The translations under genes were made by a program, and so were the position numbers. Of a stretch of DNA of 64,000 nucleotides, positions 9,394 to 12,262 are shown piece by piece. Source of the stretch: an uncultured Nitrososphaerota archaeon (GTDB lineage: Archaea > Thermoproteota > Nitrososphaeria > Nitrososphaerales > Nitrosopumilaceae); the NCBI GenBank assembly GCA_963701075.1, contig OY969559.1, positions 1,536,001 through 1,600,000 on the forward strand, written 5' to 3'. The notes below the pieces were generated by a model. It did no database searches. It was not told where the DNA came from and saw only the letters and a list, made by a program, of their open reading frames with translations. Each line of letters starts with the position of its first letter. The first letter of the stretch is position 1.

Positions 9394-9507
9394 TCATTTG
9401 CATTTGCATTCAACGCAAGTACAACCGCTTCCACAAGTACATTTGCCTCCCTTATCGCATCCGCAAGTAGTTTTGTGTTGTGCACCGCATCCGCATTGTT
9501 TTACCAT
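9394..9507 (-). CDS. metallothionein-like protein 1 (37 aa, not in ORF track)
   Basis: MVKQCGCGAQHKTTCGCDKGGKCTCGSGCTCVECKCK; 10 Cys as five CxC, no aromatics; paralog at 12134. Confidence 0.85.
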   Translation of the reverse strand: MVKQCGCGAQHKTTCGCDKGGKCTCGSGCTCVECKCK

Positions 9508-9547
9508 GTGTGATTAATGAGTGAAGTGTTATATTCGAATATAGCAG

Positions 9548-9565
9548 ATTATCATTTTTGATAAT
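9548..9565. promoter_or_regulatory. palindromic operator ATTATCA-N4-TGATAAT
   Basis: Perfect inverted repeat 41 nt upstream of the MT1 ATG; counterpart at the same spacing before MT2. Confidence 0.65.
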
Positions 9566-9656
9566 GACTTTTATGATTGTACACATATAAATAAAAAAAA
9601 TAAATATTTTTCAATAACCATAAAAACAAAGTTATTTTTATTTTCAAACACGATAT

Positions 9657-9674
9657 TGTACCATGATGTTTATA
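9657..9674 (+). promoter_or_regulatory. TGTACCA-N5-TTTATA promoter
   Basis: 43 nt upstream of ATG 9700. Confidence 0.75.
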
Positions 9675-9699
9675 GCCTGCCTTGTGACGTATTAATCAC

Positions 9700-10002
9700 A
9701 TGGCAAAAACTAGAAGCCTTGCAAGTCATGATAAGCTAAAACGTGAACACCTTCGATTGAGACAACAACATGAAAAATTAAACAGAGAACATCAAAAATT
9801 ACGCAAAGAGCATGAAAAATTTCATTTGGCTTTGTTAAAACATCACAAAGAACATGAAAAACTACGCAAGGAACATCAACAACTTTTGAAACTTCATGAA
9901 AAACACCATAAAATGCATGAACAGCATCATGAATCTCATGAGATTCACCACAGAAAACATGATGCCCATAAAAAAGGACATGCTAGATTTCATAGAAGAT
10001 AA
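9700..10002 (+). CDS. His-rich coiled-coil (histidine-zipper) metal-binding candidate
   Basis: 23 His in 100 aa, with strict heptad periodicity. Confidence 0.8.
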   Translation: MAKTRSLASHDKLKREHLRLRQQHEKLNREHQKLRKEHEKFHLALLKHHKEHEKLRKEHQQLLKLHEKHHKMHEQHHESHEIHHRKHDAHKKGHARFHRR

Positions 10003-10007
10003 GTAGT

Positions 10008-12098
10008 TTAGATTCGCATTGGTTTGTATCTATTCAATAGTAGAGAATTGCTGATAACAGTTACAGAACTTGTTGCCATTGCACCAGCTGCAAGAAATGG
10101 CAAGATCATGTACACATGAGGGCCAAATATTGGAACAAGGGCACCAGCAGCAACTGGAATCAGAGCAGAGTTGTATACAAAGGATAAAAAGAGATTTTGT
10201 TTTATTTTTGATACTGTTTTTTTGCTCAATTCCATTGCCGTTACAACATCACGAAGATCATTTTTAACAAGTATGATGCCCCCTGTTTCTTTTGCAATAT
10301 CCGTTCCGCTTCCAAACGAAATTCCGATATCTGCCGCAGCAAGTGCGGGAGCATCATTTATTCCATCGCCCACCATGGCAACAATTTTTCCCTCTTCCTT
10401 TATTTTTCTAATGGTATTTTCCTTTTCTTGAGGCGATACTTCAGCAAGTACTCTATCTATACCAAGTTTGTTTGCAATTGTATTAGCTGTTCTTTTATTG
10501 TCACCAGTAAGCATTACTACCTGAATTCCATTTTTTTTGAGTCTTTGTATGGCTTCTTGCGCATAATCACTGATTGTATCCATCATTACAATTATTCCAG
10601 ATAATTTTTTATCTATGGAAACAATGACTGGCGTTTTCCCTTCTCCTTCAAACTCCTCCATCTTTTTATCAAGTGTTTCATCAATAGTAATTCCATTACC
10701 AATTATGAATTTTCTATTTCCAATCAATATCTGATGATCTCCGTATTGAGAGAATATGCCGCTGCCAGCAAATACTTTGAAAGAATCAGGTTCAGAGATA
10801 GGAATTCCTAATTTTTTTGCGTGTCTAACTATAGATTGTGCAAGCGGATGTTCGGAATTTTTTTCCGAGATTGCTGCTAGGCGCAAGATCTCGTTGTCAT
10901 CCATTCCATTTACTGAAAATACATCAGTAACTGAAGGAATTCCTTTTGTCAGAGTACCTGTCTTATCCAATACTACGACCTGAACCTTTCGTGCAATCTC
11001 AAGATTCTCTCCTCCCTTTATCAAAATTCCATTCTCTGCTGCTTTTCCAGCTCCGACCATCAAGGCAGCAGGTGTAGCAATTCCTAATGCGCATGGGCAA
11101 GAAATTATCACCACTGATACAAAAGCAAGAAGTGAGAATGTAATCCCAATTCCACCAAAAAAGAACCACCCTAGTGCAGAAATTAATCCAATTATGATGA
11201 TTGCTGGTACAAAATATGACGATATCTTGTCAGCAAGTTTTTGAATTGGGACCTTGCTTGATTTTGCTTCTTCTACAAGTTTTACTATCTGTGATAAAAC
11301 AGAGTCGTCTCCAATCTTGGTTGTTTTGAATTTAAAGGCTCCTTCTTTGTTGATTGTACCGCCAATCACTTCATCACCAGATTCTTTCTCAACTGGTATG
11401 CTCTCTCCTGTTATTGCAGACTGGTCTACAGAGGAGCTTCCATCAATTATGATTCCGTCAACTGGAATTTTTTCTCCAGGACGAACTAGAACGATATCAT
11501 TTAGCTGTACATTTTCAACTGGTTCATCTGTTTCTTTGCTATCTTTGATGACATGAGCTATGGTCGGTTTGAGATCTAGTAATTTTTTGACAGCTTTTGA
11601 TGCTCTTGTCTTTGTTCTGCTTTCTAGTAATCTTCCAATTAGCAAAAGCGTAATTATTATTGAAGAAGTTTCAAAGTACAGATCCCCCATTGGTAAAACA
11701 TTGTGCGCAAATGCTACAACAGTACTGTAACCCCATGCTGTTGAGGTTCCTATAGCAATCAAGACATCCATGTTAGTCATCTTGTGTTTGAACGCATCAA
11801 ATGTTCCCTGATAGAATCTCCACCCCAACCAGAACTGAACGGGCGTAGCTAAAGCAAAAAGTACGTATCCGTTAATCTGACGAGGTAATACGGAAATATA
11901 TGTTAACAAAACTATAGGAATTGTGAGTGCGATACCTAGAACGACATATCGCTTTAGTTTTTTAAGCTCTTTTTCTGGTGCAGCAAATTCATCAAGACAA
12001 CTCTTGCAACAAAAATAGTGTTTGGTTCCTTCTGTTTCATAGTTAAGGGATTGATCTTTTTCCTCAACAAACATTCCACAAATAGGATCTCTCGCCAT
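10008..12098 (-). CDS. copA: Cu(I)-translocating P1B-1 ATPase with N-terminal YHS/TRASH domain
   Basis: DPICGM...[32 protein letters not shown] and MxxSS TM motifs. Confidence 0.95.
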
Positions 12099-12133
12099 TT
12101 TTGATCAACTATAAAGAAAAAATGAAGAGAGAT

Positions 12134-12262
12134 CTAACCGTGTTTTCCATGCTTGGGATCCCTACAATCCACACATGTACAATTACTTCCACAATCACAT
12201 TTGCCAGTTGTTTCACATTTGCAATGTGATTTATGTTGTGCGCCACAGCCACAGTTTGCCAT
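12134..12262 (-). CDS. metallothionein-like protein 2 (42 aa, not in ORF track)
   Basis: MANCGCGAQHKSHCKCETTGKCDCGSNCTCVDCRDPKHGKHG; 9 Cys, 4 His; 35 nt upstream of copA. Confidence 0.85.
   Translation of the reverse strand: MANCGCGAQHKSHCKCETTGKCDCGSNCTCVDCRDPKHGKHG

Follow-up and report, generated by a model that had tools for sequence, protein, structure and literature searches.

The window analysed here, a stretch of 64,000 nucleotides (nt) from contig OY969559.1 (assembly GCA_963701075.1, positions 1,536,001 to 1,600,000), belongs to an uncultured archaeon of the Nitrosopumilaceae, an acid-soil ammonia oxidiser whose orthologues discussed below come from the genus Nitrosotalea. Its minus strand carries two short genes, MT1 and MT2, which lie on either side of copA, the gene of a P1B-type ATPase, and encode small cysteine-rich proteins resembling metallothioneins. 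Both are judged to be real, translated and paralogous genes, and they are placed as a genus-restricted accessory offshoot of a family-wide module of nine cysteines (the 9-Cys module). On balance, their products probably act as a Cu(I)-thiolate buffer that would donate copper to the pump. The three genes concerned are the following:

9394-9507, minus strand: MT1, metallothionein-like paralogue of 37 amino acids (aa) in a stand-alone transcription unit (open reading frame (ORF) translation, paralogy, operator/TATA geometry)

12134-12262, minus strand: MT2, 42-aa metallothionein-like protein, first gene of the predicted MT2-copA unit (translation, ratio of non-synonymous to synonymous substitution rates (dN/dS), orthologue context)

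10008-12098, minus strand: copA, 696-aa P1B-type ATPase with an N-terminal YHS/TRASH domain (Pfam and motifs)

The MT1 protein (MVKQCGCGAQHKTTCGCDKGGKCTCGSGCTCVECKCK) contains 10 Cys among its 37 aa (27%), all of them in five CxC motifs, and the MT2 protein (MANCGCGAQHKSHCKCETTGKCDCGSNCTCVDCRDPKHGKHG) contains 9 Cys (21%) and 4 His among its 42 aa, with CxC motifs only; neither contains Phe, Trp or Tyr. The two sequences are identical at 21 of 34 positions (62%; pairwise E = 1e-13). The stop codon of MT2 is separated by 35 nt from the downstream copA ATG, and the start of MT1 lies 500 nt past the copA stop, with an opposite-strand ORF for a His-rich protein (9700-10002) between them. An earlier sequence-only reading of this DNA had described the two minus-strand ORFs with these positions, lengths, Cys and His counts and lack of aromatic residues, one upstream of copA and the other beyond its 3' end, and all of this was borne out.

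According to a six-frame scan of the 1,915,938-bp genome, the four-CxC pattern with this spacing occurs at three sites, namely MT1, MT2 and a third member of the family at C1:806809; five first-order Markov shuffles of the genome contained no match, so the pattern cannot be put down to chance. Comparison of MT2 with its orthologue in genome G064 (G064a) revealed 11 synonymous and 2 non-synonymous differences (dN/dS 0.03), which fall on the three codon positions as 1, 1 and 11. The dN/dS value was 0.03 for the orthologue G064b and 0.06 for that of genome G009. The MT2 frame is read as being under strong purifying selection, and for this reason the frames open on the opposite strand were set aside. 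The exact MT1 and MT2 proteins are absent from a collection of 15 billion proteins, and therefore no gene had been called there; NCBIfam gave no family for either protein and Pfam none above threshold, in agreement with the description of both as unannotated. The region of the two genes has no match in Rfam, and its GC profile shows no island signature. Modeling of MT2 in AlphaFold2 with 38 aligned sequences gave a predicted local distance difference test (pLDDT) score of 54.7 and no confident fold; the lack of an autonomous predicted fold may be taken as weakly compatible with metal-dependent folding.

Another identity to be considered is that of precursors of ribosomally synthesised and post-translationally modified peptides (RiPPs), a possibility named in the sequence-only reading, or of untranslated leader or non-coding elements. 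Small size, Cys richness, the failure of gene finders to call the ORFs and the open opposite-strand frame would all suit it. However, a Pfam scan of the 19 neighbouring ORFs revealed no maturation gene of the radical-SAM, YcaO, lanthipeptide or Mbn type, the nucleotide changes given above are dominated by third codon positions, and the module recurs as the in-frame C-terminus of a 455-aa protein, described below. On these grounds, together with the lack of an Rfam match, a RiPP or non-coding identity was rejected, and we consider it hardly credible.

In the operational sense, MT1 and MT2 are metallothionein-like, being small, Cys-rich, CxC-only and devoid of aromatic residues, and this part of the sequence-only reading stands. 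From the second CxC on, the spacing is CxC-x5-CxC-x3-CxC-x2-C(xC). A search of the PDB with the family profile gave seven matches at E ≤ 10, all of them metallothioneins, with E values of 0.012-3.5, none of which is significant. The best matches (E 0.012-0.06, the score being mostly composition bias) were with the β-domain of vertebrate MT-1/MT-2 (PDB 1dft, 2mrt, 9q7p), whose nine Cys, in the same spacing, span 24 residues; according to a hand count, MT1 residues 15-37 match the aligned β-domain at 13 of 23 positions. The vertebrate α-domain is lacking in the archaeal proteins. The copper metallothionein (Cu-MT) of Neurospora crassa and Agaricus (fungal family 8, PDB 1t2y) is, like MT1 and MT2, small, CxC-only, without aromatic residues and of the same spacing, and the Neurospora protein is among the seven PDB matches, with non-significant E values of 3.5 there and 5.4 with the pump-type profile described below. 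It binds six Cu(I) with seven Cys, and Cu(I)-thioneins typically have CxC motifs alone, spaced as in Neurospora. What the Neurospora Cu-MT lacks is the additional CGC pair at the N-terminus of the archaeal proteins and the His-rich tail of MT2. Since the fungal protein comes from another domain of life, this likeness is likely convergent. The metallothionein likeness as a whole is a resemblance of pattern rather than a demonstrated homology, and has probably arisen by convergence.

As for prokaryotic metallothioneins, passages of a review of bacterial copper handling (PMC7558416) state that copper resistance requires MymT of Mycobacterium tuberculosis, for which binding of up to six Cu(I) is proposed, and that SmtA/BmtA are Cys/His metallothioneins that buffer metal. 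MymT resembles MT1 and MT2 as a small, Cys-rich prokaryotic ORF that was at first unannotated; it is bacterial, and no sequence relationship was seen. To our knowledge, it has not been described as encoded upstream of an exporter. SmtA, unlike MT1 and MT2, has a zinc-finger fold and a Pfam family of its own, and this SmtA/BmtA family matched neither protein even at E ≤ 10.

A profile constructed from MT1 and MT2 plus weak genomic matches (A1), which finds these two members of its own at E 7e-13 and 3e-17, respectively, was used to follow the module through related genomes. Members of the family were defined by the pattern CGC-x7-11-CxC-x5-CxC-x3-CxC, then one more Cys, in addition to a significant profile match, and MT1 and MT2 show both. 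Within the genus, A1 matched 57 of 63 genomes (32 of the 33 of high quality); across the Nitrosopumilaceae it matched 283 of 301 genomes, with all 27 of 27 genera represented, and it matched none of 106 genomes from 19 other families of the same order; in the order-level sampling, the module was present in 15/15 Nitrosopumilaceae versus 0/106 from the sister families. These tallies include genomes flagged as unpublished. Thus the pair described in the sequence-only reading does flank copA; it is not an isolated pair. Among 1.84 billion representative proteins, searched exhaustively with a hidden Markov model (HMM), only 29 were found at E ≤ 1e-3.

The core form of the module is an acidic protein of 44-50 aa, MTDAACGC...CDC.MQG.C.C...C.C....CK, exemplified in the host genome by a 47-aa protein (C1:806794-806931; L003:1489-1632). 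Core-type relatives contain Tyr or Phe, unlike MT1 and MT2; where annotated, in metagenome-assembled genomes (MAGs) of Nitrosopumilus, Nitrosopumilaceae and Nitrosotalea, they are named only "hypothetical protein". The core-type genes give a ratio of non-synonymous to synonymous differences (pN/pS) of 0.26 (18 genes, 153 pairs). In 13 of 17 loci the gene lies between those of a ~293-aa and a ~490-515-aa protein, which have no Pfam assignment and do not resemble the 455-aa fused protein, so that the conserved synteny offers no hint of function. In this fused form, found in several genera (L053:2888-4255, minus strand; L054; L078-L082), the module is the C-terminal tail of a protein of ~455 aa, annotated as hypothetical in Nitrosopumilus sp. 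K4 and assigned to no Pfam family. It has an N-terminal hydrophobic (signal or anchor) segment, a large middle domain, a second hydrophobic stretch at 315-338 (a predicted transmembrane helix), basic residues and a low-complexity linker; its module tail should be cytoplasmic and the large domain outside.

Cysteine conservation, a check proposed in the sequence-only reading, was found to be strong: of 38 aligned family sequences, 37 retain all eight Cys that make up the four CxC motifs. The exception is a fourth copy in the host genome (C1:830830-830967; L056:2831-2974), in which one Cys is replaced by Tyr. This copy is possibly decaying, and ~4 kb from it, at C1:835187, there is a truncated frame for a P-type ATPase. 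In the phylogenetic tree, which rests on few alignment columns, the pump-linked genes form a single clade (support 99/100) on a long branch, with MT1 inside it, and fusion of the module to a membrane protein arose at least twice. A separate 158-aa protein, P0058, is found by the archaeal profile at E 3.9e-4; with three CxCKxGGxCxCGxxCxC-type repeats in tandem, it has the look of a metallothionein built from modules.

The pump-linked subfamily was found in 6 of the 63 Nitrosotalea genomes, namely that of the window (G000), G009, G064, G069 (flagged as unpublished), G073 and G074. The pump-type profile (A5) matched 4 of 301 genomes sampled from the family, all in this genus, and none of the 264 genomes in 26 other Nitrosopumilaceae genera. 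The genomic context was examined for nine pump-type genes. Four of them (MT2, G064a, G064b and the G073 gene) lie 31-71 nt upstream of a YHS-type copA that is 82-100% identical to the copA of the window. The G009 gene is located upstream of an HMA-type copA with a single ABM-domain gene between, and one of the G074 genes (G074b) upstream of a fragmented HMA-type copA. The other (G074a, L060:4211-4324), a divergent family member with one extra Cys and without the last Cys, lies 36 nt upstream of the gene of a CDF exporter (L060:4360-5238; Cation_efflux 4.6e-44, ZT_dimer). In total, six of the nine genes are upstream of copA and seven upstream of a metal exporter. Each spacer separating a small gene from its pump gene contains a T-run, possibly a leaky terminator of the archaeal kind, through which the small protein would be made in high proportion to the pump.

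According to the Pfam analysis, the CopA protein contains the E1-E2_ATPase (1.3e-59), Hydrolase (HAD) and YHS (1e-7) domains. Its motifs are CPC at 334, N-x6-YN-x4-P at 635 and P-x6-M-x2-SS at 667; the transmembrane motifs CPC, N-x6-YN-x4-P and M-x2-SS we take to be the P1B-1 signature of Cu(I)/Ag(I) pumps. Copper enzymes are indispensable to ammonia-oxidising archaea, although copper is toxic to them at micromolar concentrations. The role proposed for MT1 and MT2 is that of small cytoplasmic proteins that would fold around a metal-thiolate cluster, most likely of several Cu(I) on 9-10 Cys. MT2, whose leaderless promoter would also drive expression of the Cu(I)-exporting P1B-1 ATPase CopA, would serve as a high-capacity cytosolic Cu(I) buffer, which keeps free Cu(I) low and passes Cu(I) to CopA, and it would replace both the CopZ/HMA chaperone and the Csp store, which are missing from the host genome. 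MT1 would be a second, stand-alone copy with the same upstream operator, providing extra buffering capacity. Metal binding, the identity of the metal as Cu(I), the hand-off to CopA and the co-transcription of MT2 and copA are the parts of this scheme that we infer.

No HMA domain was found in the host genome by a search that was positive in 14 of 14 reference genomes; therefore, the host has no CopZ-type chaperone. The small gene resembles that of CopZ in its position directly upstream of a Cu(I) P1B ATPase gene, with which it is probably co-transcribed, and in the proposed hand-off. CopZ differs in having a βαββαβ fold and a single CxxC site, and MT1 and MT2 show no HMA match. Csp (DUF326) was detected in none of 15 Nitrosopumilaceae genomes (the host and 14 others) and in 9 of 106 sister-family genomes, 7 of these being among the 13 genomes of a soil family (f15). 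The distribution of Csp complements that of the 9-Cys module, which is suggestive, related genomes not being independent samples. The Csp proteins are likewise a cytosolic Cys-rich Cu(I) store; they differ as pre-folded helical bundles of ~120 aa from the 37-50-aa proteins without a predicted fold described here. Our Csp counts agree with the acquisition of Csp in the soil ammonia-oxidiser lineage, as stated in a passage of PMC7554672. The copper models set out in parts of two published studies of ammonia-oxidising archaea invoke Csp or CopZ (PMC7785015, PMC7554672), and a passage of a third study reports Nitrosotalea sinensis to be very copper-sensitive (PMC13003922).

Upstream of both small genes, putative control elements are arranged in the same way:

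12303-12320: putative palindromic operator ATTATCA-N4-TGATAAT with one mismatch, its centre 49 nt upstream of the MT2 ATG

9548-9565: putative palindromic operator ATTATCA-N4-TGATAAT, perfect, its centre 49 nt upstream of the MT1 ATG

12284-12290, minus strand: TATA-like box TAATTAA, 22-28 nt upstream of the MT2 ATG, a presumed promoter element

9529-9535, minus strand: TATA-like box AATATAA, 22-28 nt upstream of the MT1 ATG, a presumed promoter element

12333-12339, plus strand: TGTACCA box, assigned by motif position to the divergent gene for a Met-rich protein

9657-9663, plus strand: TGTACCA box followed by TTTATA, assigned by motif position to the divergent gene for a His-rich protein

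The spacing between the TATA-like boxes and the ATG codons suggests that the MT1 and MT2 mRNAs are leaderless. MT1 is a separate transcription unit, outside the copA operon. The TGTACCA box, reportedly tied to genes that are induced when copper is limiting (PMC7785015), is enriched in the window (27 sites versus 7.35 expected), and in six loci it lies 75-77 nt upstream of the start codon of the small gene; the boxes are attributed to the divergent Met-rich and His-rich genes, not to MT1 and MT2.

The palindrome was found at 16 genomic sites (≤1 mismatch) versus 1 for a control pattern, with an ORF start 41-60 nt from the centre in 10 of the 16; 8 of the 16 are clustered at C1:1,109,440-1,142,124. 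Two Usp genes have it ~49-51 nt before their start codons, as do CBS, PAC2, Zn-ADH, PNPOx-like and plastocyanin-like genes. The palindrome is conserved in the G064 loci, and it occurs before two copA genes without a small partner. Other YHS-copA lineages without the small gene (L089, L090, L091, L094) are preceded by a different palindrome (TTTACGATTGTAAA or a close variant).

Several observations weigh against a dedicated copper buffer that serves the pump. Both MT1 and the G069 copy have no adjoining pump. Only 4 of the 30 copA loci of the genus (14 of the YHS type and 16 of the HMA type) carry a small gene within 1.5 kb and 26 do not, from which it follows that CopA does not need the small partner; G074a is paired with a CDF exporter. 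The small protein is accordingly viewed as an optional add-on to exporter cassettes, and the subfamily as linked to efflux pumps generally rather than strictly to copper. The linkage to copA put forward for checking in the sequence-only reading was thus found only in part: MT2-type genes do stand beside copA in several genomes, whereas most copA loci lack them and one member stands beside a CDF gene. Further points concern the likeness to metallothioneins. The pump-type profile matched metallothioneins in five and zinc-finger proteins in three of eight PDB matches (E 0.17-5.4), the PDB matches being non-significant and flagged by HMMER for heavy composition bias, and the Pfam family Metallothio_Euk (PF12749) matched MT1 with 12.9 bits (E 0.11) and MT2 with 9.4 bits (E 1.4) at a cut-off of 22. 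Nine Cys would fit a Zn3Cys9 cluster as well, and the palindrome points to regulation by stress in general more than by copper in particular.

Two of these points lead to other readings of the proteins. If the metal is not copper alone, MT1 and MT2 may be Zn(II)/Cd(II)/Co(II) or mixed-metal metallothioneins of the M3Cys9 type, which would buffer the metal of the adjacent exporter. The number of conserved Cys is that of the metallothionein β-domain and of the CXC/pre-SET Zn3Cys9 clusters; the CDF gene starts 36 nt after G074a, which also has a weak match to Pfam TCR/CXC (E 0.0084), and the 4 His of MT2 recall Zn-binding bacterial metallothioneins. Six of the nine pump-type genes are upstream of copA, however, the CopA of the window has motifs of the Cu(I) type, and the CxC-only pattern with its Neurospora-like spacing is that expected of Cu(I)-thioneins, so that we regard this reading as unlikely. 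The regulatory data in turn would suit general stress or redox proteins, either thiol scavengers or small Fe-S/redox proteins, with only a secondary relation to the pump. The operator counts and the kinds of genes that follow the operator agree with this, as does the core-type gene, which has no metal-related neighbours. On the other hand, a metal-exporter gene lies downstream of seven of the nine pump-type genes, cubane Fe-S clusters are poorly liganded by CxC pairs, and a stress regulon is compatible with metal binding, metallothioneins themselves being classic stress-induced proteins; we rate this reading as more unlikely still.

A role in sensing was considered as well, in which the Cys cluster of MT1 and MT2, like the CxC clusters of CopY and Ace1, would detect Cu(I) and modulate a transcription factor or the activity of CopA instead of buffering metal in bulk. 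MT2 orthologues share a conserved C-terminal tail, CRDP-x-HGKH, which suggests a docking surface, and in other genera a membrane protein with a large outer domain carries the module on its cytoplasmic side, a layout resembling that of a sensor. Against a sensor stand the lack of a DNA-binding domain, the high Cys density and the absence of any other domain, and we consider it improbable.

Beyond the Cu(I) buffer proposed for MT1 and MT2, the 9-Cys module might serve the Nitrosopumilaceae as their chief store of cytosolic Cu(I) and as the hub of its trafficking, replacing Csp and CopZ: the free form would buffer Cu(I), the membrane-tethered form receive it at the inner face and the pump-linked form feed exporters, and the whole would be the first archaeal metallothionein family, of independent origin. 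We put this forward as a tentative and rather doubtful extension. A lineage-wide unannotated 9-Cys family with one branch attached to metal exporters is a concrete candidate for cytosolic copper handling. The Nitrosopumilaceae are the most abundant ammonia oxidisers of the ocean, and the module occurs in nearly all marine and soil relatives of the host. If metal binding holds true, this would be the first metallothionein family described in Archaea. The case also indicates that ORFs under gene-calling cut-offs can hide core genes.

Literature searches in full texts, with supplements and subscription papers outside the search, gave no paper on a metallothionein or comparable Cys-rich small protein of archaea or ammonia oxidisers, in line with the statement in the sequence-only reading that no characterised archaeal family was known. 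The word "metallothionein" is absent from the main texts on the Nitrosotalea devanaterra genome (PMC4836417), copper limitation of N. viennensis (PMC7785015), copper toxicity (PMC13003922, of 2026) and ancestral reconstruction (PMC7554672), and the relevant passages of the bacterial copper review list only bacterial and eukaryotic metallothioneins (PMC7558416). MT1 and MT2 with the 9-Cys module are therefore the first candidate metallothionein family in Archaea that we could find in the literature searched.

The remaining features of the cassette and its surroundings are the following:

12374-12799, plus strand: divergent 141-aa Met/His-rich membrane protein with three MSGMHGMSGMSAN repeats (translation, context)

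9700-10002, plus strand: 100-aa His-rich protein (translation, repeat analysis)

13324-13650, plus strand: 108-aa membrane-anchored YHS/TRASH protein (Pfam YHS 2.4e-13; kept in related cassettes)

12915-13172, minus strand: 85-aa membrane protein with a YHS-like C-terminus, inverted repeat I2

8184-8912, minus strand: 242-aa winged-helix (ArsR/MarR-like) candidate regulator downstream of MT1 (MarR_2 1.2e-6, HTH_5 2.9e-6)

12782-12859: 78-nt inverted copy of the internal copA segment 11398-11475 (97% complementary)

The repeats of the Met/His-rich protein are encoded by three 39-nt tandem repeats (96-100% identical) at 12545-12674 on the plus strand, and the MSGMHGMSGMSAN tract resembles a Met/His-rich Cu(I)-binding stretch of a membrane protein. 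The first 46 aa of this protein match the N-terminus of a DsbD_TM-YHS protein in G009, where the Met-rich N-terminus, a DsbD-type membrane domain and YHS form a single 390-aa gene, which appears to have been split or replaced in the window. The His-rich protein consists of His/Lys/Glu heptads in 8 copies with a 21-nt period (coiled-coil) and was not found in related cassettes. Judging from its sequence, the cassette has been rearranged, the 78-nt inverted copy of the copA segment being read as a scar. Farther away, two adjacent proteasome-subunit ORFs lie on the plus strand (6295-6870 and 7159-7536), the second of which covers only the C-terminal two thirds of the Pfam model.

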